Shown in pieces: positions 25,823 to 60,131 of a stretch of DNA of 64,000 bases. The stretch is from Gemmatimonadota bacterium (GTDB lineage: Bacteria > Gemmatimonadota > Gemmatimonadetes > JACCXV01 > JAHWKZ01): positions 543 to 64,542 of the forward strand of contig DATKCO010000003.1 in NCBI GenBank assembly GCA_035513155.1. The letters run 5' to 3'. The notes under the pieces were generated by a model, which was not told the DNA's origin, did not search any database, and saw only the letters and a list, made by a program, of their open reading frames with translations. The position numbers were made by a program, and so were the translations under genes. How positions within the stretch are numbered: the stretch's first letter is position 1; the number at the start of each line of letters is the position of its first letter.

Positions 25823-25906
25823 GAGAGGAAGGTGGTCCGGTCGTGACGAGGCGGCAACCCACCGCCCTCGTTCCGCTCCCCGGCGAATCCGCATAGGTTT
25901 CTGTCC

Positions 25907-27289
25907 ATGGACATGGTCGTCCGCAGCCGAAGGGTCGTCCTCCCCGACGAGGTGCGCCCCGCAACCGTCGGGATCGCGAAGGGGAGGATCGTCGCCGTGA
26001 CGTCCAAGGAAGCGTCCTTTCCGGGCGTCCCGGAGATTGACGCAGGGGAGTCCGTCGTGATGGCGGGCCTCGTCGACTCGCATGTTCACGTCGACGACCC
26101 CGGGCGCGCCGAGTGGGAGGGGTTCGAGACGGCGGGGCGCGCGGCCGCCGCCGGCGGCACGACGACGATCGTCGACATGCCGCTGAACTCCATCCCCGCG
26201 ACGACGACGGTGGCCGCGCTCGACGCGAAGGTGGCGGCGGCCACGGGCGTCTGCCGGGTGGACTTCGGGATGTGGGGCGGGATCGTGCCGGGGAACGGCG
26301 CCGAGCTGGCCGCGCTCCTGGCGCACGGAGCGCTCGGGCTCAAGGCGTTCCTCGTGCCCTCCGGAGTCGAGGAGTTCCCGCCCGTCGAAGACGAGGAGCT
26401 GGGAGCGGCGATGGCCCGGGTGGCGGGCTCCGGCGCGCCCGTGCTCGTTCACGCCGAGGACGCCGGCGAGCTCGCCCGGGCCGGCACCGACGCCCTCGCG
26501 GCGCGCCCTGCTTCCTACGCGGCGTGGCTCGCCTCGCGACCCGGCGTAGCGGAGGCACGCGCGGTGGCACGCGTCGCGGCGCTCGCCGGCCGAACGGGAG
26601 CCCGGGCCCACGTCGTCCACGTGGCCGGAGCCGAGGCGCTCGCCGAGGTGGCGCGCGCACGCGCGGCCGGCATTCCCCTGACGGCCGAGACGTGCCCGCA
26701 CTACCTCGACTTCATCGCCGCCGACGTCCCCGACGGCGACACGCGCTTCAAGTGCGCGCCTCCGATCCGCGGGGCGGCCGACCGGGAAGCCCTCTGGCGC
26801 GGCCTCCTCGATCGAACGCTCGACCTGATCGCCTCCGATCACTCCCCGTGCCCTCCCGGTCTCAAGGTCCCCCGCGACTTCGCCCGTTCGTGGGGCGGGA
26901 TCGCGGGGCTGGAGCTCAGGCTGCCGGCGGTGTGGACCGAGGCGCGGACGCGGGGCGCGACGCTGGTCGATCTGGCGCGCTGGCTCGCGGCCGGCCCCGC
27001 GCGGCTGGCCGGGGTCGCGGCGCGGAAGGGCCGGATCGCTCCCGGGTTCGACGCGGACCTCGTCGTCTGGGATCCCGAGCGGGAGCGGACCGTCGACGGA
27101 CCCTCCCTCCACCAGCGCCACGGGTCGACGCCGTGGGAGGGCCGGACGCTCGCCGGCGTCGTCGAGGCGACGATCCTCCGGGGCCGGCTCGTCTACGAGC
27201 GGGGGGCGTTCCCGGGAAGCCCGGCGGGCCGCTGGATCCGACGGAGCCGCGCGGCGCGCGGGCTGATCGCGGCGAGGGTCGGCCGCTGA
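25907..27289 (+). CDS. allB: Allantoinase
   Basis: 'GLVDSHVHVDDPGRAEWEGFETAGRAAAAGGTTTIVDMPLNSIPATT...GLKAFL...HAED...HVVHV' shows the cyclic amidohydrolase metal ligands. The purine-catabolic context supports the call. Confidence 0.9.
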   Translation: MDMVVRSRRVVLPDEVRPATVGIAKGRIVAVTSKEASFPGVPEIDAGESVVMAGLVDSHVHVDDPGRAEWEGFETAGRAAAAGGTTTIVDMPLNSIPATTTVAALDAKVAAATGVCRVDFGMWGGIVPGNGAELAALLAHGALGLKAFLVPSGVEEFPPVEDEELGAAMARVAGSGAPVLVHAEDAGELARAGTDALAARPASYAAWLASRPGVAEARAVARVAALAGRTGARAHVVHVAGAEALAEVARARAAGIPLTAETCPHYLDFIAADVPDGDTRFKCAPPIRGAADREALWRGLLDRTLDLIASDHSPCPPGLKVPRDFARSWGGIAGLELRLPAVWTEARTRGATLVDLARWLAAGPARLAGVAARKGRIAPGFDADLVVWDPERERTVDGPSLHQRHGSTPWEGRTLAGVVEATILRGRLVYERGAFPGSPAGRWIRRSRAARGLIAARVGR

Positions 27290-30773: not shown

Positions 30774-31943
30774 ATGCCTCAATATGCCGAAACCAGTCAT
30801 ATCTCCCAGTTGCTGGCGGATCATCAGCCGCCCTGCCTCTCGCTGTATCAACCCACTCACCGACATCACCCCGATAATCGCCAGGACCTGATTCGCTATC
30901 GGAACCTCGTTCGAGAGCTCGAGGACTCCCTGAACCGGAAGTATCCGGCGCGAGATGTGTCCTCGCTCATGAAGGAGTTTCAGGGGCTGGCCACAGACGG
31001 CGAATTCTGGAACCATCGCACGGATGGACTGGCGATCCTGGCTGCGCCCGGCGCGTTCCAGGTCTTCGAGCTCCAGCGTGCCGTGCCGGAGCTTGTCGTC
31101 GTGGCGGACAGCTTTCATCTCAAACCCCTCATTCGGATCGTCCAGTCGGCCGACCGATACCAAATCCTGTGCCTGAACCGACACGCCGCCCGACTCTATG
31201 AAGGCAACCGTGACACCCTGGACCCGGTGGATCTTACGAACCTGCCCGCGACCATCACGGAGGCGCTCGGGGAGGAATTGACCGAGCCACACCAGACCGT
31301 AGCCTCGTACGGGGAGGTCAGAAGCATGCCCGGTGGCTCGCGAGGTCAGCAGGCCATGCACCATGGACATGGGGCGAAGAAGGACGAAGTCGATATCGAC
31401 ATCAAGCGCTTTTTCCGGGTCATCGACCGAGGAATCCTCGAACACCATTCGCGCCCATCGGGTCTGCCGCTGATGCTCGCGGCCTTGGCCGAGCATCACG
31501 GGCCATTCCGCGCAATCAGCCAGAATCCTCACTTGTTGCCCGACGGAATCACGACGAACCCCGATGCGCTTTCAGTGGATCAGCTACGGGTCGAAGCATG
31601 GCGGAAGATCGAGCCCATCTATCTCGACCGACTCGCTCGTCTGGTGGACGCTTATCAGGTGGCGAAATCCCGCCGCCTCGGGTCGGATGACGTGCTGGAG
31701 GTCGCAGTCGCGGCAAGCGCAGGGCGGATCGACACGCTGCTGGTCGAAGCCGATCGGCAGGTTCCCGGTCGGATGCAACCGGAAACCGGCGAGATCGAGT
31801 TCGGCGATCTGGCCGATCCCGACACCGACGATGTCCTCGATGACGTCGCGGAGCTCACCCTTCGCATGAAAGGCCGGGTCGTCGTGGTTCCCGGGGAGCG
31901 AATGCCCAGCACGACCGGCCTGGCGGCAACCTACCGGTCGTAG
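30774..31943 (+). CDS. Bacterial archaeo-eukaryotic release-factor-like (baeRF/eRF1-fold) protein
   Basis: The N-terminal pattern 'ISQLLADHQPPCLSLYQPTHRHHPDNRQDLIRYRNLVRELEDSL' resembles baeRF-family proteins as I remember them. It has a Gln-containing loop 'PGGSRGQQ' (aa 186-193). GAGGAG RBS. Function is assigned from recalled family resemblance only. Confidence 0.55.
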   Translation: MPQYAETSHISQLLADHQPPCLSLYQPTHRHHPDNRQDLIRYRNLVRELEDSLNRKYPARDVSSLMKEFQGLATDGEFWNHRTDGLAILAAPGAFQVFELQRAVPELVVVADSFHLKPLIRIVQSADRYQILCLNRHAARLYEGNRDTLDPVDLTNLPATITEALGEELTEPHQTVASYGEVRSMPGGSRGQQAMHHGHGAKKDEVDIDIKRFFRVIDRGILEHHSRPSGLPLMLAALAEHHGPFRAISQNPHLLPDGITTNPDALSVDQLRVEAWRKIEPIYLDRLARLVDAYQVAKSRRLGSDDVLEVAVAASAGRIDTLLVEADRQVPGRMQPETGEIEFGDLADPDTDDVLDDVAELTLRMKGRVVVVPGERMPSTTGLAATYRS

Positions 31944-31955: not shown

Positions 31956-33215
31956 CTAGTCGCTCTCGGCGCGACCCTGTAGGATGGCGAGGAACGACCG
32001 CGTCCGGAGCTCCTCCAGCGAGAGGCCGGTCGCCAGCGCCTCCTCCTCCGTGATCGCCCCGCAGCCGGTTCCCCGCAGGAAGAAGTTCAGCAGCGCCTGG
32101 CCGGTGGCGGCGTCGTCGAACACATCGCCGGTCAGGGTCGCCCGCGCGGCCCGCTCGACGAAGCGGGAAAGCCGCTCGGTCGCGGCTTCGAGCGCCTCGA
32201 GGAAGAACGCGTACACGGCGGCGTAGCGGGTCGGGAGCTGGGCGGGGTGGAGGTCCCATCCCTGGTAAAAGCCGTGGCGCAGGGAGTGGCGAACGTGCCG
32301 GTAGTGGAGCGCCCAGCCGCGGTGGACGGCGGCGCGGTTCTCGGCTTCCTCCTCGGAGGTCAGAGAGCGACCCTCCGCGGCCCGATGGGGCGGCGCCGGC
32401 ATGACGTTCGTCGCCCCGTCGGACAGCCATACGCCGGAGTCGGATAGCGAGACTTGCATCATGTGACGCGCGAAGTCACAGGCCGGGTGGTCGAGATCCT
32501 GGTGGAGCGCGGTGATCCCGAGCGAAGCCGTGTAGTCGTAGATGCCGAAGTGGGCGGCCGCGCAGCGGCCGCGTCCCGCCGCCACCAGCGCGGGCAGGGG
32601 ACACGACCCGTCGGGCCCGAGGATCGACTGCGGGGTCTCGACCATGATCTCGAGCCGGATCGCGCCGGGGGCGAGGCCGGCCCGCTCCTCGAGCGCGTCC
32701 AGCAGGTCGGCGAGGACCGCGACCTGTTCGGGGACGACAACCTTGGGGTCGGTGACGAAGAGTGGCTCGGGGAGCACGCCACCGCTGGTCTCCAGGAGCG
32801 CGTCGAGGAAGATCTCGAGCGTCCGCCCGGCCCGCCCCGCGAGCTGCTCGGTGAAGGGCTTGACGCGGATCCCGAGGAACGGCGGAAGCGTCCCCTCGGC
32901 CAGCCCGCGCGCGACCTCGCGACCCGCGGCCCCGGCGGCGGCGTCCTCCTCGGCGTCGGGGCGGTTCCCGAAGCCGTCCTCGAAGTCGATCCGGAAATCC
33001 TCGACGGGCTCGATCTCGAGCTTTCGCACGATCCGCTCCCGCACCGGGTCCGCGAGCCGGGCGTCCATCCCCAGGACGTCGGCGAGTGTTTCGGCGTCGG
33101 GCGCCCACGCGTCGAGCGCCCGCAGCGCGAGGTCGCCGAGCCGTCGGGCGGTGTCGGCGCGGAAGAGATCCGCCCCTCCGTAGACGGTATGGACGGGCTG
33201 GCGGGACTCGGGCAT
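31956..33215 (-). CDS. HpcH/HpaI-aldolase / citrate-lyase-beta / malate-synthase-like TIM-barrel protein
   Basis: The internal ATG at 33215 gives 'MPESRQPVHTVYGGADLF'. Motifs 'FRIDFEDGFG' and 'IRLEIMVETPQ' resemble the CitE/HpcH metal-binding pattern. The exact family is not resolved. Confidence 0.5.
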   Translation of the reverse strand: MPESRQPVHTVYGGADLFRADTARRLGDLALRALDAWAPDAETLADVLGMDARLADPVRERIVRKLEIEPVEDFRIDFEDGFGNRPDAEEDAAAGAAGREVARGLAEGTLPPFLGIRVKPFTEQLAGRAGRTLEIFLDALLETSGGVLPEPLFVTDPKVVVPEQVAVLADLLDALEERAGLAPGAIRLEIMVETPQSILGPDGSCPLPALVAAGRGRCAAAHFGIYDYTASLGITALHQDLDHPACDFARHMMQVSLSDSGVWLSDGATNVMPAPPHRAAEGRSLTSEEEAENRAAVHRGWALHYRHVRHSLRHGFYQGWDLHPAQLPTRYAAVYAFFLEALEAATERLSRFVERAARATLTGDVFDDAATGQALLNFFLRGTGCGAITEEEALATGLSLEELRTRSFLAILQGRAESD

Positions 33216-33225
33216 GCGCCGGGGT

Positions 33226-34068
33226 CTACCGGCCGCCCGCGGAAGCCGGCAGGACGGCGTCGTAGAGGACGCGCGCCAGGACTCGGGATCGGTACCGGGC
33301 GCTCGACCGCACGTCGTCGATGGGGGAGACGTCGGCGCGGAGCGCCTCATCGAGGTCCTCGGGGTCGCGCGGGGGAGGTCCCGCCTCGAGTCGGGCCTCG
33401 ACGGTGGGGCAGCGACGCACGGTCGGGGCCACGCTGGCGGCGACGACGCGCCAGCCGGCGTCGTCGGAGCGGGTCACCGCGAGCCCGACCTTGGCGATCG
33501 CCTGCGCCCGCCGCGGCCCGACCTTGACGAACCGCTGGAGGGCGTAGCGCCGGAGGGGGAGGCGGATCGCGACCACGAGCTCGTCCGCGCGCCGGACGCT
33601 CTCCCGGTACCCGGTGTAGAAGGCGTCGAGCGGCACCTCCCGGCGCCCGTCGCGCGCGGCCAGCACGACCGTGGCGTCGTACGCCATGAGGACCGGCACC
33701 CCGTCGGCGGCGGGCGAGCCGTTCACGATGTTGCCGGCCCAGGTGCCCCGGGACTGGATCTGGATCGCCCCCACCTGGCGGGCGGCCTCGACGAGGAGCG
33801 GGAACACAGCGGGAACGCGGGGATTCACGATCACGTCCCAGTAGCTCGCGAGGGCCCCCAGCTCCAGCCCGTCGGCGCTCCAACGGAGCCCGCGGAGGGC
33901 ATCGATCCTCACGAGGTCGAGGAGGTCCCGCCCGTGCTGATCGACCTTCTGCGGCCAGTGGACGAAGAGGTCGGTGCCGCCGGCGACGGGAAGGAGGGAG
34001 TCGCCGTCCGGGCGGTCGGCCAGGAGATCCAAGGCCGCCCCCAGCCCGGTCGGCCGCCGGACGGTCAC
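33226..34068 (-). CDS. Molybdenum hydroxylase FAD-binding (medium) subunit, system 1
   Basis: The GTG at 34068 directly abuts the upstream stop. 'LLPVAGGTDLFVHWPQ...GTWAGNIVNGSPAADGVPVLMAYDATVVL' is the CO-dehydrogenase-flavoprotein/XdhB pattern. Confidence 0.85.
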   Translation of the reverse strand: MTVRRPTGLGAALDLLADRPDGDSLLPVAGGTDLFVHWPQKVDQHGRDLLDLVRIDALRGLRWSADGLELGALASYWDVIVNPRVPAVFPLLVEAARQVGAIQIQSRGTWAGNIVNGSPAADGVPVLMAYDATVVLAARDGRREVPLDAFYTGYRESVRRADELVVAIRLPLRRYALQRFVKVGPRRAQAIAKVGLAVTRSDDAGWRVVAASVAPTVRRCPTVEARLEAGPPPRDPEDLDEALRADVSPIDDVRSSARYRSRVLARVLYDAVLPASAGGR

Positions 34069-34535
34069 GCGGACCCCGGCGGGGAACCGAACCGCCCTGC
34101 GAGCGCGGCCTCGACGCCCTCTATGATCCCATCGTAACCCGTGCACCGGCAGATATTTCCCGCCATGAGCTCACGTATGGTATGAGATCGGAGGAGATCG
34201 GGGTTCTCGACGATCCAGAGCGCCGTCATGACGACCCCGGGGGTGCAGGCGCCGCACTGGGTCGCCCCGCTCGCGAGGAACGGTCGGAGGCGGTCCGGAT
34301 CAATCGACTCGATCGTCCGGACGTCGCGGCCGGCGACCTGGAACGCCGGGACGAGACAGGCGTCGGTGGGGAGCCCGTCGAGCCAGACCGTGCACGCCCC
34401 GCATTCGCCCTCGCTGCATCCGTCCTTGGTGCCGGTGAGGCCCAGGTCGTACCGCAGGACGTCGAGGAGGCGGGCGACGGGGTCGACGCGCAGCGCGGCG
34501 GGCCGCCCGTTCAGGGTGAAGTCGAGCTCAAGCAC
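34065..34535 (-). CDS. Molybdenum hydroxylase [2Fe-2S] (small) subunit, system 1
   Basis: 'GTKDGCSEGECGACTV' and 'QCGACTPGVVM...GNICRCTGY' are the two canonical 2Fe-2S motifs. Confidence 0.9.
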   Translation of the reverse strand: MLELDFTLNGRPAALRVDPVARLLDVLRYDLGLTGTKDGCSEGECGACTVWLDGLPTDACLVPAFQVAGRDVRTIESIDPDRLRPFLASGATQCGACTPGVVMTALWIVENPDLLRSHTIRELMAGNICRCTGYDGIIEGVEAALAGRFGSPPGSA

Positions 34536-36777
34536 TGCGAGGCCGACTCGCCGCGGCGTCGTCGACGAGGTCCATCAGGCGCTCGGCGGTGAGCGGGATC
34601 TCGCGGGGCTCGACGCCGAGCGCGCGCGCCACCGCGTTGACGACGGCCGGAGCCGGCCCGTCGATCGGCAGCTCGCCCAGGCCCTTCGCCCCCCGCGGCC
34701 CACCGGCCCAGGGGGTCTCGCGGAAATGGACCCGGATCGGCGGCAGGTCGTCCGAGGTGGGGATGATGTAGTTCGTGAGCTGGGCGTTCGTCATCGCGCC
34801 GTCCTCCCAGTGGCACTCCTCCATCAGCGCCCAGCCGACGCCCTGGGCGACGCCACCCTGCACCTGGCCCCGGGCGAGCGTCTCGTGAAGGAGGGTGCCG
34901 ACGTCTTGCAGGGCCACGAAGTCGATCACGCGCACCCCGAACGTGCGGAGGTCGACCTCCACCTCGGCGACGTAGGTCGCCCAGCCGAAGGCGGCGTACG
35001 CGTCCCCCTGGTACGTGGCCTCGTCCCAGCGGACGTTCGGCGGCGGCGCGTACTCCGCGCGGCCGACCAGGTCGGCGCCGGGATGGTCGTCGTGCCAGGC
35101 GAGAAGCGCCCGTCGGAGGTCGTCGCCGCGGACCTCCGAACCGAGCCCCAGCTCGGCGCGGAGATCGTCGCACGCCGCCTCGACGAGCCCGCCCACCACC
35201 ATCGCCGTGCGGGAGGCGACGGTGGGGCCGCTGTTCGGCACCCGCCCGGTGTCGGCCTCGGCGATCACGACCGCGTCCGGGTCCACGCCAAGCCGCTCGG
35301 CGGCGAGCTGAGTGAAGATCGTGAGTGTTCCCTGGCCCATCTCGATGTTCGCGCTCCGCACCTCGATCCGGCCGTCCGGGAGCCCCGCCACGTCGAGTCG
35401 CGAGGCGAGCGCCACCTCACCGCCGCCGGTGAAGCCGGCGCCGTGATGGAAAGAGGCGAGCCCCAGGCCACGGCGAAGCCAGGGATCGGAGCGCGCGAGG
35501 CGGCGGTGCTCGACCTCCTTCTCTCGCCACCCCGACAGCTCGACGGCCCGATCCAGGATCCCGACCCGGTCCACGCCGTCGCGGATCCGCTGGCCCGTCG
35601 CGGTCTCGCCGCCGTCGACGATCAGGTTGCGTCGCCTCAGCTCGATCGGGTCCATCCCGATCGCGTCGGCGACGACGTCCATGTGACGCTCGTTCGCGAA
35701 ATGGGTCTGGGGGGCGCCGAAGCCGCGGAAGGCTCCGTGCGGCGGGCTGTTCGTCAAGATGGCGCGTCCCACGATCCGCACGTGGTCGCACTGGTAGGGC
35801 CCTGCCGCGTGGATGATGCCGCGGGAGAGGACGACCGGCGAGAGGGTGACGTAGGCGCCCCCGTCCAGGACCACGTCGATGTCCTGGGCGACCAGCCGTC
35901 CGTCGGAGTCGACCCCGGTCCGGTGACGGACGATCGACGGGTGGCGCTTCGTCGTCGCCGCCATGTCCTCGCCGCGGTCGTAGACGACCTTGACCGGCCG
36001 GCCCGCCTTGAGCGCGAGCAGCGCCGCGTGGAGCGCGATGACCGACGGGTACTCCTCCTTGCCGCCGAAGCCACCGCCCGTGGGGGCGTGCACGATCCGG
36101 ACCCGGTCGGCTTCGCGGGCCAGCGCCCGCACGGCGGCCTTGTGGACGTAGAAGGGGCACTGCAGGCTGCCCTTGACGAACAGCACGCCACCCTCCTCCC
36201 ACGCCAGCATCCCCTGGGTCTCGATGTAGACGTGCTCCTGGGCGCCGGTGCGATACTCGCCCTCGACGACCCGCCAGGCCGCGTCCAGCGCCGCCTCGAC
36301 ATCGCCCTTCTCGATGCGGAGCCGCTTGAGGACGTTGTCGTCGCCGCGCTGGACCTGGTCGGAACGGGGTGAAATCGATACGTCGAGATAGGCAGGGTCG
36401 GGATCGACCACGACCTCGACGCCGCGGACGGCGCGCCGCAGCGCGGACCGCGACGGGTGGGCAAGGAGGACGACCGGCTCGTGGACGTGGCGGACGTAGT
36501 CGGCGGCGAGCACCGGCTGGTCGGGCTCGATCAGCAGGACCTCGTTGGCGCCGGGAACGTCCCGATGGTCGACGACGACGAACCCGGACCAATCGACCGC
36601 GGGATCGAAGCGGACCTCCCGGATCCGGCCGCGAGGCGCCGGGCTCCGCACCGTCATGCCCCACCAGGCGCCTTCGACGGCGAGGTCGTCGACGTAGCGC
36701 TCCGCGCCGCTCAGCTTGGCGAGTCCTTCGAGCCGTTCCATCGACGGAAGTTCGCGTCGGGCGGCGGGAGGCCGCAA
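34528..36777 (-). CDS. Molybdopterin-binding (large) subunit of a xanthine-dehydrogenase-family enzyme, system 1
   Basis: 'GGGFGGKEEY' and 'RGAKGLGELPIDGPAPAVVNAV' (Glu retained in the GE motif). Typical a/b hammerhead N-terminus. An alternative start lies at 36741 (MERLEG). Confidence 0.9.
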   Translation of the reverse strand: MRPPAARRELPSMERLEGLAKLSGAERYVDDLAVEGAWWGMTVRSPAPRGRIREVRFDPAVDWSGFVVVDHRDVPGANEVLLIEPDQPVLAADYVRHVHEPVVLLAHPSRSALRRAVRGVEVVVDPDPAYLDVSISPRSDQVQRGDDNVLKRLRIEKGDVEAALDAAWRVVEGEYRTGAQEHVYIETQGMLAWEEGGVLFVKGSLQCPFYVHKAAVRALAREADRVRIVHAPTGGGFGGKEEYPSVIALHAALLALKAGRPVKVVYDRGEDMAATTKRHPSIVRHRTGVDSDGRLVAQDIDVVLDGGAYVTLSPVVLSRGIIHAAGPYQCDHVRIVGRAILTNSPPHGAFRGFGAPQTHFANERHMDVVADAIGMDPIELRRRNLIVDGGETATGQRIRDGVDRVGILDRAVELSGWREKEVEHRRLARSDPWLRRGLGLASFHHGAGFTGGGEVALASRLDVAGLPDGRIEVRSANIEMGQGTLTIFTQLAAERLGVDPDAVVIAEADTGRVPNSGPTVASRTAMVVGGLVEAACDDLRAELGLGSEVRGDDLRRALLAWHDDHPGADLVGRAEYAPPPNVRWDEATYQGDAYAAFGWATYVAEVEVDLRTFGVRVIDFVALQDVGTLLHETLARGQVQGGVAQGVGWALMEECHWEDGAMTNAQLTNYIIPTSDDLPPIRVHFRETPWAGGPRGAKGLGELPIDGPAPAVVNAVARALGVEPREIPLTAERLMDLVDDAAASRPRSA

Positions 36778-36837: not shown

Positions 36838-38154
36838 TCACGGGACCGGGGCGGGCACCCCGTTCGCGCCCGCCAGGGAGGAGAGCGCGTCCAGCAGCTC
36901 GGTCGCGCGGGACCTCGTCCCGGCCAGGCACGCGACCCCGATCTTCCCGGCCTCGAGCGCGCTTGGCGACCAGGGGACGATCCCCTCTCCGCGTCGGGGA
37001 TCGTAGAGCCTGTCCCCGAGATGCCGCTCCAGCTCCGCGTAGTCGCGCGTCGCGACCGGGACGGTCCGGCTGAGGAATGCCTTCGGAGCGGGTCCGCCGA
37101 GGCGGCCCGCGAGCCGAACGAGGCGGGCGGTCAAGGCGTGGGGATACGACGCGCCGTTGACGCGGGGATTGATCTCCGCCAGGAAGTGACGCACCCGACC
37201 GTGGTGCTCGTGCTCGACGAAATCGAACCCGACCCGGCCGCGGAAGGCCTTCCGGCGCATCCAGGCCGCCATCGTGCGCGCGTCCTCGAGCATGCGGTCC
37301 TGTCGGCGGGCGCGGCTGGGATGGACGCTCCCCAGGTAGGCGAGGTCCCGATCGAGGAGCTGATCGGTGATCCCCAGTCGCAGCCCCCCGGGGTCGCCCC
37401 GCTCGACGACGACCTCCACGTTGGGGGAGACGAGCGACTCGTAGAGCGGCTCCACGAGCCAGAGCCGGTCGCCGGGCCTGCCGACGACGGCCTCGAGGAC
37501 CTCATCCAGGCGGTCGGGCTCGACGACGAACGTCGAGCTGCCGGACGCTCCCGAGGAGCCGCGGAGGACGGCGCGCCCGGTCGGTCGGGAGCGGTGCAGG
37601 ACGGCCCGCCGGAGACCCGCGAGATCCGCGCGCCCCGCGCCGCGCGGGATCCGCACGACGTCGCCCGGTGCCACCGGGACGCCGAGCGACCGGGCGAGCG
37701 CGCGTCCCGCGGACTTCTCATGAAGTCGCCGGACGAGGGACGCCGGACCGCCCGCGACCCGCACAGGCCGGCCGAGCCGGGATCGGAGGAAACGGCCGAG
37801 CGTCGCGGTCGCCGGGGTCGCGAAGAACGGGACGAGCTCGAGGGCCTCGGTCTTCCGGAGCCGGCAGGCGAGCCGGTCGAGGGACGGGCCGTCGGTCGCG
37901 ATGCGCGCAGAGAGCCCCGTCCCGGGCCGGATGCCGTCGAAGACGAGGATGTCCTCGGGTCGCGGGCCGATCCCGAGGCTCCGGAGGAACGCGACGTGCC
38001 GCGCGTCGACGGGGCGCGCGAGACACACGACGTCGCCCGGTCGTGCGAGCAGGAGGGCCCGCTCTCCGAGGCATTCGAACTCCGGCATGCGGACCGCGAT
38101 GTCGAGGGCGTTGGGGGCCTCGGAGGGACTGTGGAGGAAGATCCGGGTCGTCAC
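36838..38154 (-). CDS. ATP-grasp family protein with pre-ATP-grasp N-domain (PGM1-like peptide/amide ligase type)
   Basis: The GTG at 38154 overlaps the upstream stop (GTGA). 'VRHFLAEINPRVNGASYP' is the ATP-grasp C-terminal motif pattern. The upstream 209 codons of the track ORF overlap the ligase gene out of frame and were discarded. Confidence 0.6.
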   Translation of the reverse strand: MTTRIFLHSPSEAPNALDIAVRMPEFECLGERALLLARPGDVVCLARPVDARHVAFLRSLGIGPRPEDILVFDGIRPGTGLSARIATDGPSLDRLACRLRKTEALELVPFFATPATATLGRFLRSRLGRPVRVAGGPASLVRRLHEKSAGRALARSLGVPVAPGDVVRIPRGAGRADLAGLRRAVLHRSRPTGRAVLRGSSGASGSSTFVVEPDRLDEVLEAVVGRPGDRLWLVEPLYESLVSPNVEVVVERGDPGGLRLGITDQLLDRDLAYLGSVHPSRARRQDRMLEDARTMAAWMRRKAFRGRVGFDFVEHEHHGRVRHFLAEINPRVNGASYPHALTARLVRLAGRLGGPAPKAFLSRTVPVATRDYAELERHLGDRLYDPRRGEGIVPWSPSALEAGKIGVACLAGTRSRATELLDALSSLAGANGVPAPVP

Positions 38155-39386
38155 GCCCGGACGATCGGGCGCGGCTTCCCGCCTTCCGCGGTCCCGATCC
38201 GCGGGACCGCCTCGATCTCGAATCGGACGTCCGGGCCGAGCATGGCGGCGGCGGCCTCGCGCAGCTCCTGCCCCGAAGGCGGCCCCGCCCCCTCCAGGGG
38301 AACGTGGCGCAGGACGATCCGGTCCGGCGCCTCCTGGACGAGCTGGTACTGCCGGATCCAGGGCGCGGCGCCCAGAAGAGGCGCCAGGATCCGGTACGGA
38401 TGGATCGCGCGGCCGTCGGGCAGTTCGAAGTAGTCGATCGTCCGGCCCTCGATCCGGGCGAGCGTGGCTCCGGGATGGCCACACGGGCAGCCGTACGGCC
38501 CCGGGGTCACCGAGTCGGTCAGCCGGTAGCGGATGAAGGGGGCCGTGGAGAAGCTGAGCGCGGTGACGACGATCTCGCCGGTGTCCGGGGCGGTCGGGAC
38601 GGCGCCCGCCACCACCTCGACGATCAGGTCCGGCCGGCCGAGATGCTTGAGCCCGGCGGCTCGGCAGTCGGAGGCGATGAGCCCCACCTCGTGGGTACCG
38701 TAAGCGTCGTGGACCGGGGCCCCGAACGCGGACTCGATCCGCGCGCGCGCCATCGGCGTGACGACCTCGCCCGAGAGCCATACGACGCGCGGCCGGAGTC
38801 GCGGCCGGTCGTGGTCCGTCACGAGGCCGGCGACGCGCTCGATGACGCTGGGCAGCCCGCGCAGGAAGGTCGGTGGCGTCCGTCGGAGCTCCGCCAGGAT
38901 CTCAACGGGATCGAGGCAGCAGTCGATCATCCGCTCGTCGACGAGTCCCAGCCCGTTCAGGAGCGCGATCCCGTCGGGCCGGCCCTCGCGGTGGACGAAC
39001 ACCGAAGCCACGCGATCCCCCCGACGCAGCCCCGCCGCGAGGAGGTCGCGCAGCCAGCTCCGCGCCCAGAGCGCCTGCTCCGCCCGGCTCCGATGGACGA
39101 CGAGCGGCTCGCCCGAGTACCCCGAGGTCATCGTAGAGACCAGGGTCGAGGGGCGGGTGCCGCGGGCGACGATCTCCTCGATCGGGCGGTCGAGGAGATC
39201 CGCCTTCTCCATCACCGGGAGACGGGCGAGGTCGGCGATCCCGCGGACGTCTGCCGGGCGCAAGCCGGCCCGATCGAAGCGCTCGCGGTGGAACGGGACC
39301 CGCTCGTAGGCGTGAGCCACCAGCCCCCGGAGACGCCGGTCCCGGGTCTCCGCGTCGTTCCGCTCCGTTCCGGATGCGCGCGTCAT
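38151..39386 (-). CDS. Phenylacetate-CoA-ligase-family (PaaK / F390-synthetase-like) adenylate-forming enzyme
   Basis: 'LRGLVAHAYERVPFHRERFDRAGLRPADVRGIADLARLPVMEKADL...TMTSGYSGEPLVV' carries a TSG(S/T)TG-like P-loop variant. 'YGTHEVG'. Confidence 0.8.
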   Translation of the reverse strand: MTRASGTERNDAETRDRRLRGLVAHAYERVPFHRERFDRAGLRPADVRGIADLARLPVMEKADLLDRPIEEIVARGTRPSTLVSTMTSGYSGEPLVVHRSRAEQALWARSWLRDLLAAGLRRGDRVASVFVHREGRPDGIALLNGLGLVDERMIDCCLDPVEILAELRRTPPTFLRGLPSVIERVAGLVTDHDRPRLRPRVVWLSGEVVTPMARARIESAFGAPVHDAYGTHEVGLIASDCRAAGLKHLGRPDLIVEVVAGAVPTAPDTGEIVVTALSFSTAPFIRYRLTDSVTPGPYGCPCGHPGATLARIEGRTIDYFELPDGRAIHPYRILAPLLGAAPWIRQYQLVQEAPDRIVLRHVPLEGAGPPSGQELREAAAAMLGPDVRFEIEAVPRIGTAEGGKPRPIVRA

Positions 39387-39480
39387 GGCCGAAGGGTGTC
39401 CCGACGCGATGCCGGGGTGCAAGGGAGTCGCGGCTGGTCCTTCCTGTGCGGATCGGCCGGGCCGCATTTACCTTGTCCCC

Positions 39481-40014
39481 ATGCGGACGATGAGTCCCGC
39501 CGAGCCCGTTCAGCTGCGCCTCACGGTCAACGGGGAGCCGCGGGTCGTCTCGGCCCCGCTCCACCACACCCTGCTCGAAGTCCTGCGCGAGGAGCTCGGC
39601 CTGACCGGGACCAAGCACGGCTGCGAGCTGGGGGAGTGCGGGACGTGCACGGTCCTGGTCGACGGCGCGCCGGTCCTCTCCTGCCTCGCGGTCCCCGCCG
39701 CCCTTGAGGGACGGGAGGTCACGACGGTCGAGGGGATGGAGACCGCCGCCGGCCTTCACCCCCTCCAGCAGGCGTTCGTCGAGCTGGGGGCGGCCCAGTG
39801 CGGGTACTGCACGCCCGGGTTCCTGCTCGCCGCGATGGCGCTCCTCGACGAGTCGCCGCGGCCCGCGCGGGACGAGATCGTCGACGCGCTGGGCGGCAAC
39901 CTCTGCCGCTGCACCGGCTACCTGAAGATCTACGAAGCCGTCGAGCTCGCTGCCGCGCGGATGGAGGGCGAGGACGCCGAGCCCGCGGAGGAGACCCTGT
40001 ATGGCGAGGCGTGA
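39481..40014 (+). CDS. [2Fe-2S] small subunit, system 2 (HcrC-like)
   Basis: 'GTKHGCELGECGTCTV' and 'QCGYCTPGFLL...GNLCRCTGY'. Internal ATG at 39481. Confidence 0.9.
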   Translation: MRTMSPAEPVQLRLTVNGEPRVVSAPLHHTLLEVLREELGLTGTKHGCELGECGTCTVLVDGAPVLSCLAVPAALEGREVTTVEGMETAAGLHPLQQAFVELGAAQCGYCTPGFLLAAMALLDESPRPARDEIVDALGGNLCRCTGYLKIYEAVELAAARMEGEDAEPAEETLYGEA

Positions 40015-42475
40015 CGGAGGATCCGGCCTCAGGGTCGTCGGCCGCGCGCTGCCGAAGGTGGACGCGGTCGCGAAGGTGACCGGTCGAACGCGGTTCGCCG
40101 ACGACCTGTTCCTGCCCCGGATGCTCCACTGCCGCATGCTCCGCTCGACCGTGCCGCATGCCGAGATCCGCGCGGTCGACACGAGCGCGGCGGAGGCGAT
40201 GGAGGGGGTCGTCGCGGTCCTGACCGGGAAGGACCTGCCGACTCCGTACGGGATCCTTCCCGTCAGCCAGGACGAGCACGCGCTGTGCCTCGACAAGGTG
40301 CGGTTCATCGGCGACCCGGTCGCCGCGGTGGCCGCGATCGACGAGGAGTCGGCCGAGGCGGCGTGCCGCGCGATCGCGGTGGAGTACGCGGAGCTCGACG
40401 CGGTCGCGTCGATCGAGGACGCGCTCGACGGCGAGGACCCCGGAATCCATCTCTACGGCGACGGCCACAACGTCCACAAGGCGGTGGCGCTCGAGTTCGG
40501 CGATGTGGAGGCCGCGCTGGGCGAGGCCGACGTCGTGCTCGAGGACACGTTCTTCTACGAAGGGAATACCCACCTCCCGATGGAGCAGCACGCCGCGCTG
40601 GCGGACTGGCGCCCCGACGGGAAGCTGACCCTCTGGTCCTCGACCCAGACTCCGCACTATGTCCACCGCGCGCTGGCGCGCGTGCTGGAGACGCCGGCGA
40701 GCCGGATCCGTGTCATCGCCACGCCCAACGGGGGCGGCTTCGGCGGCAAGAGCGACCCGTTCAACCACGAGATCGTGGTGGCCGAGCTGTCCCGGCGGAC
40801 CGGCCGGCCGGTGAAGATCTGCTTGACCCGCGAGGAGGTCTTCTACTGCCACCGCGGCCGCCACCCGGTGCTGATGTGGGTGAAGACCGGGTTCCGGAAC
40901 GATGGCGCGATCACCGGCATGCACTTCCGCTCGTTCCTCGACGGCGGGGCCTATGGCAGCTACGGGGTCGCGTCGACCTACTACACGGGCGCGCTCCAGA
41001 CCGTGACGTATCCGGTGCCCGCGTACCGGTTCGAGGGTCTGCGCGCGTTCACGAACAAGCCCCCGTGCGGGCCCAAGCGCGGCCACGGCACCCCGCAGCC
41101 CCGCTTCGCTCTCGAGGTGCAGATCGACAAGGCGGCCCATCGGCTGGGCCTCGATCCCGCCCGCATGCGACTCGACCACCTGGTCCCGCCGGATTCGGTG
41201 ACGGCGAACTGGCTCCGGATCGGGTCGATGGGCCTCGGCGCGTGCATCGAGAAGGTCGTCGCGGCGTCCGGCTGGGAGGAGAAGCACGGCCGCCTGCCCG
41301 AGGGCCGGGGCGTGGGCCTGGCGTGCGGGAGCTACATCTCGGGCGCCGGCCTGCCGATCTACTGGAACGCGATGCCCCATTCGGGCGTCCAGCTCAAGCT
41401 GGACCGCGGCGGCGGCGTGACCGTCTTCTGCGGCTCGACGGACATCGGACAGGGATCGGACTCGATCCTGGCCTATGTCGTCGCCGAGGTTCTGGGCGTC
41501 GACCCGTTCGCGATCGAGGTCGTCACCGCCGACACGAGCCTGACCCCGGTCGACCTGGGATCGTACTCGAGCCGGGTCACGCTGATGAGCGGCAACGCCG
41601 CGCTCCAGGCCGCCGAGCGGGCGCGCGAGCTGCTCGTCCAGGCGCTGGCCGAGAAGTGGGAGATCCCCGGATCCCGCATCGCCCTGGCCGAGGGGCGCGC
41701 CTTCGACGTCGAAGACCCGGACCGGTCGATCCCGTTCGCCGACGCGGTCGTCGCGGCCGAGGCGAAGTTCGGGACGATCGGCACGGTGGGCTCCTACACG
41801 CCGCCCGCGTCGCCCGGGCGATACAAGGGCGCGGGGGTGGGACCCAGCCCGGCGTACTCGTACGCGGCCGCGGTGGCCGAGGTGACGGTCGACCCCGAGA
41901 CCGGCGAGACCCGGGTCGACGAGGTGTGGATCGCCCATGACATCGGGCGGGCGATCAATCCCGTCGTCGCGATCGGCCAGGTCGAGGGATCGGTGTACAT
42001 GGGCCTGGGAGAGGCGCTGATGGAGGAGATGACCTACCGCGGGAACCGCAACGTCGTCCACCGCCATCCGTCGCTGCTCGAGTACAAGAGCCCGACGACC
42101 CACGAGATGTGCCGGATCCACACGTTCCTGATCGAGGATCCGGATCCCAACGGGCCGTTCGGCGCCAAGGAGGTGGGGCAGGGACCGCTGCTCCCGATCC
42201 CGCCGGCGATCGTCAACGCGATCCACGACGCCGTCGGCGTCCGAGTGGACGAGGTGCCGGTGACGCCGCAGAAGGTGCTCGCCGCGCTCAAGCGGAAGGC
42301 GAAGGGGGAGGAGGCCCGCGAGGGACCGGCCGGCATCCCGGAATTCCCGTGGCCGGAGCCCGTGCGGGTGCCGCCGCCCTCGTCCGGCGGGGACGGCCGC
42401 GCGATCGACGACCCGCGCCACATCGGGGCCGGCGGCGTGCGGGACGGGGGCGTGACGGGAGGGGTGCCGGCATGA
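40001..42475 (+). CDS. Molybdopterin-binding large subunit, system 2 (4-hydroxybenzoyl-CoA-reductase-alpha/aldehyde-oxidoreductase-like)
   Basis: 'GRALPKVDAVAKVTGRTRFADD' and 'GGGFGGKSDP'. The C-terminal active-site loop reads 'GAKEVGQGPLLP', with Gln where the family normally has Glu. It has a low-complexity tail of about 50 aa. Confidence 0.85.
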   Translation: MARRDGGSGLRVVGRALPKVDAVAKVTGRTRFADDLFLPRMLHCRMLRSTVPHAEIRAVDTSAAEAMEGVVAVLTGKDLPTPYGILPVSQDEHALCLDKVRFIGDPVAAVAAIDEESAEAACRAIAVEYAELDAVASIEDALDGEDPGIHLYGDGHNVHKAVALEFGDVEAALGEADVVLEDTFFYEGNTHLPMEQHAALADWRPDGKLTLWSSTQTPHYVHRALARVLETPASRIRVIATPNGGGFGGKSDPFNHEIVVAELSRRTGRPVKICLTREEVFYCHRGRHPVLMWVKTGFRNDGAITGMHFRSFLDGGAYGSYGVASTYYTGALQTVTYPVPAYRFEGLRAFTNKPPCGPKRGHGTPQPRFALEVQIDKAAHRLGLDPARMRLDHLVPPDSVTANWLRIGSMGLGACIEKVVAASGWEEKHGRLPEGRGVGLACGSYISGAGLPIYWNAMPHSGVQLKLDRGGGVTVFCGSTDIGQGSDSILAYVVAEVLGVDPFAIEVVTADTSLTPVDLGSYSSRVTLMSGNAALQAAERARELLVQALAEKWEIPGSRIALAEGRAFDVEDPDRSIPFADAVVAAEAKFGTIGTVGSYTPPASPGRYKGAGVGPSPAYSYAAAVAEVTVDPETGETRVDEVWIAHDIGRAINPVVAIGQVEGSVYMGLGEALMEEMTYRGNRNVVHRHPSLLEYKSPTTHEMCRIHTFLIEDPDPNGPFGAKEVGQGPLLPIPPAIVNAIHDAVGVRVDEVPVTPQKVLAALKRKAKGEEAREGPAGIPEFPWPEPVRVPPPSSGGDGRAIDDPRHIGAGGVRDGGVTGGVPA

Positions 42476-43461
42476 TGCGGCTGCCCCGCTTCGAGTACCG
42501 CGTCCCGCGCTCGATCGACGAGGCGGTGGCGGCGAAGGGGGACGCGCCGCCGGACGCCGCGTACGTCGCGGGCGGCACCGATCTCTATCCGAACATGAAG
42601 CGCCGCCATCAGGAGCCCGGCACCCTGATCGCCCTCCACGCGGTCGAGGAGCTGAGGCGGATCGAGCCGCGGGAAGGAGGCGGCCTCGCGATCGGCGCGA
42701 CCGCGACCCTGACCGAGGTCCGGCGGCACCCCCGGGTGCGGGCGGACCATCCGGCGCTCGCCGAGGCGTGCCGGCTCATCTCCACCCCGATCCTCCAGAA
42801 CATGGGGACGCTGGGCGGGAACCTCCTGCTGGACACGCGCTGCAACTACTACGACCAGAACTACGACTGGCGGAAGTCGATCGACTTCTGCATGAAGAAG
42901 GACGGGACGATCTGCTGGGTGGCACCCGCCTCGCCGCGCTGCTGGGCGGTGCAGTCTGCGGACAGCGTGCCGCTCCTGGTGGCCCTGGGGGCCGAGGTCG
43001 ATCTCGCGGGACCGGGTGGGGAGCGGCGGGTGCCGGTCAGCGCGCTCTATCGCGACGACGGGATCCTCTATCTCGCCAAGCAGCGGGACGAGCTCCTGAC
43101 CCGCGTGCTCCTGCCGGCGCCCGACGGCTGGCGCGCGGTCTACCGCAAGGTGCGCCGCCGTGGCGCGTTCGACTTCCCGGTCCTCGGCGTCGGCGCGTGG
43201 GCGCGGTTCGAGGACGGCGGAACGGTGGCCGAGGCGCGGGTCGTCATGGGCGGGGTCGGCTCCGCCCCCGAGGCCGTCGAGGGGGCGGCCGCCGCGCTGG
43301 TCGGCGGGACGCTCGACGACGCGTCGATCGAGGCCGCCGCGAGCGCCGCGTGGAAGGCCGGCCGTCCGCTCGACAACACCGATTTCTCGATCTCCTGGCG
43401 CAAGGAGATGATCCGCCCCACCGTCGCCCGCGCGCTGAGAGACCTGCGGGACGGCCCATGA
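42472..43461 (+). CDS. FAD-binding medium subunit, system 2, with a four-Cys insertion (HcrB-like extra [4Fe-4S] loop)
   Basis: 'YVAGGTDLYPNMK' (FAD). The insertion 'CNYYDQNYDWRKSIDFCMKKDGTICWVAPASPRC' has spacing C-x15-C-x7-C-x8-C at residues 124/140/148/157. ATG overlaps the upstream stop. Confidence 0.8.
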   Translation: MMRLPRFEYRVPRSIDEAVAAKGDAPPDAAYVAGGTDLYPNMKRRHQEPGTLIALHAVEELRRIEPREGGGLAIGATATLTEVRRHPRVRADHPALAEACRLISTPILQNMGTLGGNLLLDTRCNYYDQNYDWRKSIDFCMKKDGTICWVAPASPRCWAVQSADSVPLLVALGAEVDLAGPGGERRVPVSALYRDDGILYLAKQRDELLTRVLLPAPDGWRAVYRKVRRRGAFDFPVLGVGAWARFEDGGTVAEARVVMGGVGSAPEAVEGAAAALVGGTLDDASIEAAASAAWKAGRPLDNTDFSISWRKEMIRPTVARALRDLRDGP

Positions 43462-44048
43462 GGGTCGGAGGGATCGTCCTCGCCGCCGGTCGCTCGTCCC
43501 GCATGGGGAGCGCCAAGGCGCTGCTCGAGATCGAGGGCCGGACGTTCCTCGAGCGCGCCCTCGGCATCCTTGCCGGGGGAGGCTGCGAGCCGCTCGTCGT
43601 CGTGCTGCCCGACGGCGCCTCCGCCGGTCGGGCGGGAGAGCTGGCCAGGGCCGGCGGGGCCGAGGCCGTGGAGAACCCGCTCGCCGGAGCCGAGCAGATC
43701 GACAGCCTCCGGGTCGGTCTCGCCGCCCTTCCGGACGACCTCGACGCGGCGGTCGTCCTGCCCGTCGACCATCCCCTGGCGCGCGCGGAGACGGTCCGGG
43801 CGCTCGTCGGGGCCTTCGGGGCGAGCGGAGCCCCGATCGTCCGACCCGTCTACCGCGACCGGCCCGGCCACCCCGTCCTGTTCGCCCGGGCCGTCTGGGG
43901 AGAGCTCGCGGACCCGACCCTCGACCGGGGCGCGCGCGACGTCGTCCACCGGCACGCCGGGGAGCTCCTCGACGTGCCGCTCGACGATCGCGGGGTCCAC
44001 GTCGACGTCGACACGCCGGACGACTATCGCCGGGAGGTCAAGCCGTGA
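43458..44048 (+). CDS. mocA: Molybdenum cofactor cytidylyltransferase-like nucleotidyltransferase
   Basis: 'GIVLAAGRSSRMGSAKALLEIEGRTFLERAL' is the MobA/MocA-type N-terminal motif. ATGA overlap. It follows a Mo-hydroxylase operon. Confidence 0.75.
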   Translation: MRVGGIVLAAGRSSRMGSAKALLEIEGRTFLERALGILAGGGCEPLVVVLPDGASAGRAGELARAGGAEAVENPLAGAEQIDSLRVGLAALPDDLDAAVVLPVDHPLARAETVRALVGAFGASGAPIVRPVYRDRPGHPVLFARAVWGELADPTLDRGARDVVHRHAGELLDVPLDDRGVHVDVDTPDDYRREVKP

Positions 44049-44863
44049 CGCGCCTCGACGTAGCGCGCGCCCTGGCGCTCGTCCAGGCCGCGGTCGCGGA
44101 GGGGCGGGACGCCGCGACGGCCGTGGTCGTGGCCGCCCCCGATCCGGCCCTGGTGGGACGCCGGGTCGTGTGGGACGGCGAGCGGCATCACGGAGGGCTG
44201 GGGGAGCGGTCGGCGGACGCGCGAATCCGGCGGCTCCTCAAGACGGCGACCGGGTCCGCGGGGTGCCACACGATCGCGGAAGGGCTCGAGCTCTACGTGG
44301 AGTGGTGGTCGCCCGCTTCGGAGCTCGTGATCGTGGGCGCCGGACACATCGCGCGCCCGCTCGCCGCCATCGGGCGACTCCTCGACTTCCGGGTCCTCGT
44401 GCTCGACGATCGAGCGGAGCTGACGACTCCCGAGCGCTTTCCGGGGGCCGACGTGCGGATCGTCGACTTCGCCGACCCGTTCTCGGGCCTCGAGATCGGG
44501 CCCCGGACGAGCCTCGTCCTGGTGACACGCGGCCACCGCTACGACTACGACTGCCTGCGCGCGCTCGTCCGGAGCGGGGCCCTCCCCGCCTACCTGGGTG
44601 TGATCGGGAGCCGCCGCCGGGTCCGCGCCGCCTTCGAGCAGCTGGCGGAGGAGGGGGTCGACGCCGCCTGGCTGGCGCGGATCCGCGCCCCCATCGGGCT
44701 CGACATCGGTTCCGAGACGCCGGCCGAGATCGCGGTGGCGATCGCCGCGGAGATCGTTCACGCCGTCCGCGGCGGGACGGGGCGGCCTCTCTCGGAGGCG
44801 GCCGACGTGCTGCGGCACGTGCGCGCGCTGAGCCGGTCGGCGACCGCCGGAGAGGGATCGTGA
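44045..44863 (+). CDS. xdhC: XdhC/CoxI-family Mo-hydroxylase maturation protein (with Rossmann domain)
   Basis: 'LVIVGAGHIARPLAAIGRLLDFRVLVLDDR...LVTRGHRYDYDCL...IGSRRR...PIGLDIGSETPAEIAVAIAAEI'. Confidence 0.8.
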   Translation: MTRLDVARALALVQAAVAEGRDAATAVVVAAPDPALVGRRVVWDGERHHGGLGERSADARIRRLLKTATGSAGCHTIAEGLELYVEWWSPASELVIVGAGHIARPLAAIGRLLDFRVLVLDDRAELTTPERFPGADVRIVDFADPFSGLEIGPRTSLVLVTRGHRYDYDCLRALVRSGALPAYLGVIGSRRRVRAAFEQLAEEGVDAAWLARIRAPIGLDIGSETPAEIAVAIAAEIVHAVRGGTGRPLSEAADVLRHVRALSRSATAGEGS

Positions 44864-45225
44864 GCGAGACGCTGGACGTCCTCGCGGCGTTCACCGACGC
44901 CGTGAGATCGGGACGGCCGGTCGTGCTGGCGACGATCGTGCGCGCGAAGGGCTCGACGCCCCGGGGGGTTGGGAGCCGGATGGCGATCGAGCCGGACGGC
45001 GAGGCGGTGGGCACGGTCGGCGGGGGATGCGGCGAGGCCCAGGTCCTGGAGGAGGCGCGAGCCGCGCTCGGAGCGGGCCGGGCACGACTGGTCCGCGTCG
45101 ACCTGACCGAAGACCTCTACTCGTGGAGCCCCGCCATCTGTGGCGGCGTCTTCGACGTCCTGCTCGAGCCGTGGTCGCCCGCGCGGACCCCGGGGACCCG
45201 CGGACCTCGATTCGAGGTAGAATAG
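44860..45225 (+). CDS. XdhC N-terminal-domain-only protein
   Basis: GTGA overlap start. 'VVLATIVRAKGSTPRGVGSRMAIEPDGEAVGTVGGGCGEAQV'. Confidence 0.7.
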   Translation: MSETLDVLAAFTDAVRSGRPVVLATIVRAKGSTPRGVGSRMAIEPDGEAVGTVGGGCGEAQVLEEARAALGAGRARLVRVDLTEDLYSWSPAICGGVFDVLLEPWSPARTPGTRGPRFEVE

Positions 45226-59628: not shown

Positions 59629-59688
59629 GGATGGTGAGGCTCGGAGCGGCGGCGCGCGACCTCGGGCCGCGCGCCGGGCTCGGCGAGA

Positions 59689-59964
59689 CTACTCGGCGAC
59701 GATCGGGAAGTGTGCGTCCAGGTCCGAGTGCGGACGCGGGATCACGTGCACGGAGACGACCTCGCCCACCTTCTTCGCGGCGGCCGCGCCGGCGTCCACG
59801 GCGGCCTGGCAGGCAGCGACGTCGCCGCGGACCAGGGCCGTGACATAGCCAGCGCCGATCTTCTCGTACCCGACGAGCGTGACGCGCGCGGCCTTGACCA
59901 TCGCGTCGGCGGCCTCGATGAGCGCCACCAGCCCGCGCGTTTCGATCATCCCCAGTGCTTCCAT
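59689..59964 (-). CDS. BMC-H shell protein (single PF00936 domain)
   Basis: '[59 protein letters not shown]...VHVIPRPH'. Strong RBS GGGAGGAG. Confidence 0.95.
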
Positions 59965-60060
59965 TCGGGTTCTCCTCCCGGCCGAGGGGTCGTGCGGATG
60001 AGCGTCTCGCGCGCCGGCGAACGGCGCGTGTTCCTGGAATCAGGTCCTCGTGAAATCGAC

Positions 60061-60099
60061 CGGCCGGGGTCCTCCTGGTCGGTGCGGAGGAGCCGGCCG
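60061..60099 (-). other. Strong stem-loop inside the 167-nt gap between pta and the BMC-H gene
   Basis: 'cggccggggtcctcc-tggtcggtgc-ggaggagccggccg' forms a GC-rich stem of about 14 bp with one mismatch. No T-tract follows. Confidence 0.4.
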
Positions 60100-60131
60100 T
60101 TGAGCGAGTTTAAGCACGATGTTCCCGCTAT

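Follow-up and report, generated by a model that had tools for sequence, protein, structure and literature searches.

The 64,000-nucleotide stretch of DNA analyzed here (the window; positions 543-64542 of contig DATKCO010000003.1, from a soil Gemmatimonadota genome) encodes at positions 39481-43461 what is, to judge from its genes, a three-subunit enzyme belonging to the family of xanthine oxidase (XO). On balance, we consider this enzyme to be an uncharacterized paralogue in the superclade of 4-HBCR (4-hydroxybenzoyl-CoA reductase; HcrCAB of Thauera aromatica), not a 4-HBCR, and probably one that is coupled to ferredoxin and works in the reductive direction. Its closest kin form a clade, here termed the Q-clade, with glutamine at the site of the family's catalytic glutamate. 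Annotation pipelines name Q-clade proteins "4-hydroxybenzoyl-CoA reductase" (JGI names); that automatic label is probably wrong. The source genome comprises 2.45 Mb in 140 contigs and is 83% complete, and the nearest protein relatives of the enzyme are found in Gemmatimonadota metagenome-assembled genomes (MAGs).

Subunits, nearest relatives and the four-cysteine loop

The three structural genes lie on the plus strand in the order small-large-medium. The small (gamma-type) subunit (39481..40014; 177 aa; Pfam Fer2 and Fer2_2) contains eight Cys, 48/53/56/68 and 107/110/142/144, as expected of two [2Fe-2S] clusters, and no twin-arginine (Tat) leader or signal sequence was seen in it. Its gene overlaps by 14 nt that of the large molybdopterin (alpha-type) subunit (40001..42475; 824 aa), a member of the Hcr superclade, whose stop codon in turn overlaps, in an ATGA, the gene for the medium (beta-type) flavin adenine dinucleotide (FAD) subunit (42472..43461; 329 aa; Pfam FAD_binding_5 and CO_deh_flav_C). 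A MocA-like molybdenum cofactor cytidylyltransferase gene follows (43458..44048, plus strand; NTP_transf_3, E = 3e-37), again across an ATGA overlap, and its presence in the operon implies a molybdopterin cytosine dinucleotide (MCD) cofactor. Pfam domains, the eight small-subunit Cys and the MocA gene thus agree with the alpha-beta-gamma XO-family architecture of 4-HBCR. The sequence-only reading of this DNA had likened the gene order to hcrCAB, and the likeness is borne out by a representative of the true HcrA clade (L103), which shows the same order.

When the PDB was searched with phmmer, Thauera 4-HBCR (1RM6) was the top match for all three subunits. The large subunit scored 631 bits against 1RM6_A, as compared to 274 bits for the next PDB match; the medium subunit scored 196 bits against 1RM6_B, in a single uninterrupted stretch, and the small subunit 162 bits against 1RM6_C. 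Identity was 43% between the large subunit and HcrA and 38% between the medium subunit and HcrB. The top NCBIfam models were the 4-HBCR equivalog models with curated cut-offs, TIGR03193-TIGR03195, but each subunit fell below its threshold: 838.8 bits against 994.55 for the large subunit (TIGR03194), 283.1 against 404.55 for the medium (TIGR03195) and 171.7 against 257.8 for the small (TIGR03193). An AlphaFold2 (AF2) model of the medium subunit (predicted template modeling score, pTM, 0.83) matched 1RM6_B best in fold (E = 1e-29, TM 0.80). With HcrCAB (PDB 1RM6/1SB3) and HbaBCD of Rhodopseudomonas palustris, the window enzyme shares three subunits in small-large-medium order, two [2Fe-2S] sites, the FAD domain, an MCD-type cofactor, the large-subunit motifs STQ, PPCG..RGHGT and GAKE, placement in one superclade, and an ungapped cysteine loop in the FAD subunit.

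This loop is an insertion with four Cys (Cys124/140/148/157; 42841..42942, plus strand), the predicted ligands of an additional [4Fe-4S] cluster. The sequence-only reading had reported these residues and had found their spacing identical to that in HcrB, with an offset of two. Both statements are accurate: nt 42841-42942 encode exactly CNYYDQNYDWRKSIDFCMKKDGTICWVAPASPRC, and phmmer aligns the four residues, in ungapped columns, with Cys122/138/146/155 of HcrB (1RM6 chain B), the spacing being C-x15-C-x7-C-x8-C in each. On the basis of alignment, we take these HcrB residues to be cluster ligands. The 87-residue loop region alone matched HcrB at E = 1.6e-18, the loop Cys were invariant in 120 of 120 homologues, and the insertion was found in every medium subunit of the Hcr superclade that was examined; the FAD subunit of xanthine dehydrogenase (XDH) type encoded elsewhere in the window has none of the 38 inserted residues. 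Alignment therefore places the loop as homologous to the HcrB insertion, with a likeness far beyond chance. In the cofactor-free AF2 model, the Cys loop had a pLDDT (predicted local distance difference test) below 50, as expected of a metal-binding loop; because the loop is unmodeled without its cofactor, the model says nothing on cluster geometry.

The loop region alone also retrieved, with gaps, the FAD subunits of two aldehyde-oxidizing enzymes, 5G5G_B and 5Y6Q_B (E = 1.7e-4 and 0.03). These belong to PaoABC of Escherichia coli (PDB 5G5G) and a Methylobacillus aldehyde oxidase (5Y6Q), both heterotrimeric XO-family enzymes with a Cys-rich insertion at the same place in the FAD subunit, and for both chains the alignment to the medium subunit runs through the insertion as one stretch. 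Their insertions presumably bind a [4Fe-4S] cluster, and we likewise assume that the catalytic Glu is kept in both. The large subunit of the window enzyme differs from theirs, scoring only 184-209 bits against them and 284 bits with the PaoC-type NCBIfam model NF041671 (cut-off 1180); and PaoA is Tat-exported, unlike the window small subunit. Another comparison is offered by urolithin C 9-dehydroxylase (Ucdh) of the gut anaerobe Enterocloster bolteae, the second reductive enzyme of the XO family, which is 32.7% identical to 4-HBCR, its nearest characterized relative (PMC12771579). It is described with FAD and 2Fe-2S subunits only, with no extra [4Fe-4S] cluster, receives its electrons from NADH, and demonstrates that reductive phenol dehydroxylation in the family is not restricted to CoA thioesters (PMC12771579). 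Compared by description only, Ucdh resembles the window enzyme as a three-subunit XO-family enzyme with MCD, for whose maturation XdhC is needed.

Catalytic position and phylogeny

At the site of the family's catalytic Glu (HcrA Glu726; bovine XO Glu1261), the large subunit has Gln727, encoded by a CAG codon at 42179..42181 (plus strand) within the motif GAKEVGQGPLLP, as placed by alignments to 1RM6_A and 8UEM_A. The role of HcrA Glu726 is, again, one that we take from alignment. The motif at the catalytic position reads GAKEVGQG in the window enzyme, GAKEASEG (Glu726) in HcrA and GAKGIGES in a mycobacterial CoxL. All 120 orthologues have Gln at position 727, and 119 of 137 rows of the family have Glu at the catalytic position. 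Among Gemmatimonadota, homologues with 72-75% identity carry Gln, while paralogues with 45-53% identity keep Glu. The tree places the origin of Gln at the base of the Q-clade, with independent gains in the representatives P0248 and P0282. Across the Q-clade, 48 of the 55 positions in four active-site loops are invariant, as compared to 34% of positions overall, which marks the site as functional and subject to selection rather than in decay. A second Glu, Glu724, two residues upstream of Gln727, is specific to the superclade and invariant, and it could take over proton transfer. A search of the literature found no description of the Q-clade or of a Glu-to-Gln enzyme in the XO family.

The large subunit further differs from HcrA in the motif GGGFGGKS (GGGFGART in HcrA) and in a conserved C-terminal tail of about 35 residues (residues ~767-801; 42299..42403, plus strand), which is specific to the clade and reads ...R.GP...P..PWPEP.RVPPP..GGDG.A. 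Column counts over the 120 orthologues showed R773, G775, P776, P780, W784, P785, V790, P793 and G796-G799 to be nearly invariant; Thauera HcrA is gapped across this region and has no counterpart.

Trees were computed, with IQ-TREE, from sequences that represent 50%-identity clusters in a collection of 1.8 billion proteins. The large subunit falls inside a 20-row Hcr superclade (support 100/99) and does not group with CO, nicotinate or xanthine dehydrogenases, so that the kinship to 4-HBCR proposed from the sequence alone withstood both of the checks put forward with it, the loop alignment described above and this phylogeny. Its Q-clade (100/100) sits in a 14-row subgroup (93/95), outside the clade of characterized HcrA; the 6-row sister subgroup holds Thauera HcrA, which forms a 100/100 pair with a 61%-identical representative on a long stem. 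Tree position thus marks the Q-clade enzyme as an Hcr paralogue, not an orthologue of HcrCAB. What stands of the proposed 4-HBCR-like identity is that 4-HBCR is the nearest solved and curated relative; scores under the cut-offs, the separate subgroup and Gln in place of Glu726 tell against a closer equation.

The genomic settings of related branches bear on ancestry. P0245, the immediate Glu-type sister (57% identity), is a 949-aa fusion of small and large subunit, and its locus (L101; GCA_018335975.1 JAGXRH010000160.1, 77-12450) encodes two BcrAD_BadFG ATPases, an acyl-CoA dehydrogenase and a two-subunit 2-oxoacid:ferredoxin oxidoreductase resembling ketoglutarate oxidoreductase (KGOR). This is a context of anaerobic aromatic type, and P0245, which lies outside the curated HcrA clade, is probably a true reductive enzyme for aryl-CoA. 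P0248 (51% identity), with Gln at the catalytic position, lies in an operon (L100; ENA ERZ27237009 k141_330702, 9505-22301) with large and small aconitase-like subunits, a PaaK-type CoA ligase, an HMGL-like protein and two 2-oxoacid:ferredoxin oxidoreductases; enoyl-CoA hydratases and an ABC transporter adjoin it, and the locus resembles an anaerobic pathway for acyl- or aryl-CoA that has not been described so far. P0247, another Glu-type relative, occurs in an orphan operon with a nitroreductase. Given the contexts of P0245 and P0248, the Q-clade most probably descends from ferredoxin-dependent reductive enzymes. The tree suggests that aerobic soil bacteria acquired, as a stand-alone operon, what had earlier served in anaerobic aromatic clusters.

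Within the Q-clade, the tree follows taxonomy, with two Gemmatimonadota groups, Thermoanaerobaculia and Blastocatellia separated by short branches. One large subunit (L013; CAZTUB010000019.1), from a MAG labeled 'uncultured Clostridia bacterium', nests in the Blastocatellia group with 99% local support; the taxonomic label or the binning of this MAG is probably wrong.

Distribution, gene neighborhood and host physiology

Close relatives of the enzyme were located in at least 583 species genomes. The best 80 belong to Gemmatimonadota, Blastocatellia/Pyrinomonadaceae and Thermoanaerobaculia and are 69-89% identical; Q-clade enzymes from different phyla are 69-75% identical. About half of the sampled Gemmatimonadota have some member of the superclade, and roughly a quarter have a Q-type orthologue.

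Neighbors were counted at those best 80 loci of the at least 583 genomes. The small subunit is encoded beside the large subunit in 78 loci and the medium subunit in 74. A MocA homologue is present in 22-33 loci, XdhC in 4 (close relatives only), a CapK/PaaK-like ligase in 2, a pre-ATP-grasp gene in 2, and the FAD subunit of the second XDH-type enzyme (XDH2) and a DUF6986 gene in 5 and 3, respectively. A de novo search of the 80 loci for conserved neighbors returned only the small subunit, the medium subunit and MocA as informative; PanB, PanC, FolK and a thioredoxin-like gene also recurred, as lineage synteny in Pyrinomonadaceae. Since no other informative neighbor recurs, the enzyme is a self-contained operon, usually small-large-medium(-mocA), and the purine genes and the ligase next to it are a peculiarity of this lineage.

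The window itself has six translationally coupled plus-strand genes joined by overlaps (39481-45225): small, large, medium, mocA and a split xdhC, with the 14-nt overlap at the first junction and 4-nt ATGA or GTGA overlaps at the remaining four. The two halves of the cofactor-insertion chaperone are an XdhC Rossmann-domain protein (44045..44863, plus strand; XdhC_C, E = 8e-43) and an XdhC_CoxI N-terminal-domain protein (44860..45225, plus strand; XdhC_CoxI, E = 5e-26), each preceded by a GTGA overlap. They stand in swapped order (44045-45225), the Rossmann half first and the XdhC_CoxI half second, an arrangement also seen in a 90%-identical relative (L004) and, on the opposite strand, in L102.

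Divergently upstream of the enzyme lies an adenylate-forming gene resembling PaaK, F390 synthetase and CapK (38151-39467, minus strand), which scores far under any CoA-ligase cut-off. Together with a pre-ATP-grasp (PGM1_C-like) gene, it forms a minus-strand pair (36838-39467). In L004 (4579-9414), the same pair is followed by a patatin/Omp85 gene that is missing from the window. A functional link between the enzyme and this ligase and pre-ATP-grasp gene was considered and rejected: the association is kept in 2 of 80 loci, and the genes form a minus-strand set with the patatin/Omp85 gene in L004.

Companion genes for an aryl-CoA pathway were also sought in the host genome, as the sequence-only reading had proposed. 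No BcrB/C-type (HGD-D), BamB-type (AFOR_N) or BoxB gene was found in the 83%-complete assembly, tblastn with acidobacterial BoxB gave no match, and BoxB was not found in the genomes of the six nearest relatives. Of 49 carrier genomes, 22 gave a BoxB match that passed the cut-off, and none of these lay closer than 10 kb to the orthologue; in eight genomes, the surroundings of BoxB out to 9 kb held no Hcr-like gene. A Box-pathway link for the Q-clade orthologue group was accordingly discarded, there being no adjacency and no BoxB in the host or its six nearest relatives. The host genome does encode three haem-copper oxidase subunit I (COX1) proteins and one 2-oxoacid:ferredoxin oxidoreductase.

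Proposed mechanism and rival explanations

The mechanism that we favor for the ferredoxin-coupled, reductive Q-clade enzyme is as follows: the surface [4Fe-4S] cluster would serve as docking point for a one-electron carrier, probably ferredoxin, which the host's one 2-oxoacid:ferredoxin oxidoreductase could reduce. Electrons would then pass from [4Fe-4S] to FAD, to the two [2Fe-2S] clusters and to Mo-MCD, as in 4-HBCR, and the reduced Mo would remove a hydroxyl or oxo group from a substrate that is probably an electron-poor aromatic or heteroaromatic compound. With Gln727 instead of a general base, the classical hydroxylase direction (attack by a base-activated Mo-OH) would be disfavored, and the superclade-specific Glu724 could supply protons.

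Several points weigh against this interpretation. The sequence-only reading had stated that the [4Fe-4S] cluster is what allows inverted electron flow, which is too strong: because gapped loops occur in 5G5G_B and 5Y6Q_B and the reductive Ucdh uses NADH, the loop, as far as these comparisons go, does not by itself fix the direction of electron flow. That direction is instead deduced only from ancestry and from the missing base. The invariant Glu724 might act as base, in which case hydroxylation would be retained. The missing pathway genes could lie in the gaps of the 83%-complete genome, although BoxB was not found in the six nearest relatives either. Finally, 4-HBCR is sensitive to oxygen (cited in PMC12771579), whereas the host, with its three haem-copper oxidases, is aerobic.

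One rival is an oxidative hydroxylase or dehydrogenase, acting, for example, on an aldehyde, an N-heterocycle or a heteroaroyl-CoA and, like PaoABC, passing electrons out through FAD and [4Fe-4S] to ferredoxin or the respiratory chain, with Glu724 or water as base. An aerobic host with three COX1 genes, the gapped loop homologues in the two aldehyde oxidizers and the invariance of Glu724 would all suit such an enzyme; so would the adjoining XDH-like enzyme, MocA and XdhC being common to both in this lineage. Yet the large subunit scores 631 bits against HcrA but only 209 against PaoC and no more than 274 against any hydroxylase, the small subunit has no Tat signal, and the nearest Glu-type sister sits in an anaerobic, ferredoxin-generating context. 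In Rhodobacter capsulatus XDH, moreover, replacement of the corresponding residue (E730 variants) is said to abolish activity. The conserved Glu has been described as essential for hydroxylation (PMC10420851). Members of the family are, for their part, mostly oxidative (PMC12771579), and we regard the oxidative alternative as possible but rather unlikely. A genuine reductase of 4-hydroxybenzoyl-CoA, or of a close hydroxyaroyl-CoA, fed by the adjoining PaaK-like ligase and dehydroxylating an aryl-CoA for catabolism, is in our view improbable. It would account for the nearest characterized relative being the same for all three subunits, for the identical Cys loop and gene order, for the adenylate-forming gene at 38151-39467 and for sister lineages in anaerobic aromatic-type clusters. 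It is contradicted by all three subunits lying under the equivalog cut-offs, by a large subunit in another subgroup than HcrA and by Gln in place of Glu726; nor were BcrBC, BamB or BoxB found in the host, or BoxB in its six closest relatives, or any BoxB adjacency in other carriers, and the ligase is kept in 2 of 80 loci as part of the CapK/pre-ATP-grasp set on the opposite strand. The absence of conserved CoA ligase or ferredoxin genes beside the operon, and an aerobic host in which no Bcr, Bam or Box genes were found, likewise separate the window enzyme from HcrCAB. Of the reductive aryl-CoA dehydroxylase that the sequence-only reading envisaged, then, the reductive dehydroxylase role is possible, while the aryl-CoA substrate lacks the benzoyl-CoA or Box genes and the conserved ligase that would go with it.

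Purine-catabolic genes do adjoin the operon, as that reading had noted, and they raise the question of a second xanthine or purine dehydrogenase. The minus strand carries an XDH-like large-small-FAD set of the XO family (33226-36777; large subunit 34528-36777), followed by a gene for a DUF6986 protein (574 bits; joint span 31956-36777, minus strand), and about 6 kb beyond these lies an allantoinase gene over its NCBIfam cut-off (25847-27289, plus strand); together they are probably the real purine-catabolic set. The XDH-like large subunit has PucD as its best model, under cut-off, and keeps both Glu, in GGGFGGKE and GAKGLGELP. Proximity (2.7 kb to the XDH-like enzyme, 12 kb to allantoinase) and secondary matches of the Q-clade enzyme to XdhA-type NCBIfam models (501-522 bits) speak for a purine substrate. 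Its XdhA and PucD scores, however, are 417-522 bits, far under cut-offs of 780-916; it has GGGFGGKS and GAKEVGQG, not the XDH-type GGGFGGKE with its substrate-binding Glu and the catalytic Glu (GxGE); and the association with XDH2 and DUF6986 persists in just 3-5 of 80 loci. The earlier judgment that this is not a second xanthine dehydrogenase is upheld by the motifs, the missing Glu and these scores, and we consider the purine alternative hardly credible.

More speculatively, and we hold this to be possible but doubtful, the Q-clade could represent a soil-wide clade, in hundreds of Gemmatimonadota and Acidobacteriota species, that carries out a ferredoxin-driven, so far undescribed reductive dehydroxylation or deoxygenation of a common soil metabolite in aerobes, having permanently lost the catalytic Glu while its Mo site stays strongly conserved, its [4Fe-4S] port is of the HcrB type and its C-terminal tail is new. 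If true, a reductive Q-clade would add a third kind of reductive chemistry to a family whose members are regarded as hydroxylases, and the clade may reveal new reductive chemistry, as Ucdh recently did. A large conserved clade without the catalytic Glu also tests the accepted mechanism of the XO family. There is a practical side as well: in soil metagenomes, hcrA/hbaC counts serve as a marker for the anaerobic degradation of aromatics (PMC8204438, PMC4842900), and such counts are inflated in soils if Q-clade enzymes are not 4-HBCR.

Two further features of the window were recorded. An open reading frame at 30774-31943 matched a model of the AOC03_06830-family ribosome hibernation factor with 178 bits, under the 330-bit cut-off. 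At 58189-63508 lies a bacterial microcompartment (BMC) locus, in which 59689-59964 encodes a BMC shell protein and 58189-59628 an acylating aldehyde dehydrogenase (PRK15398, 611 bits).

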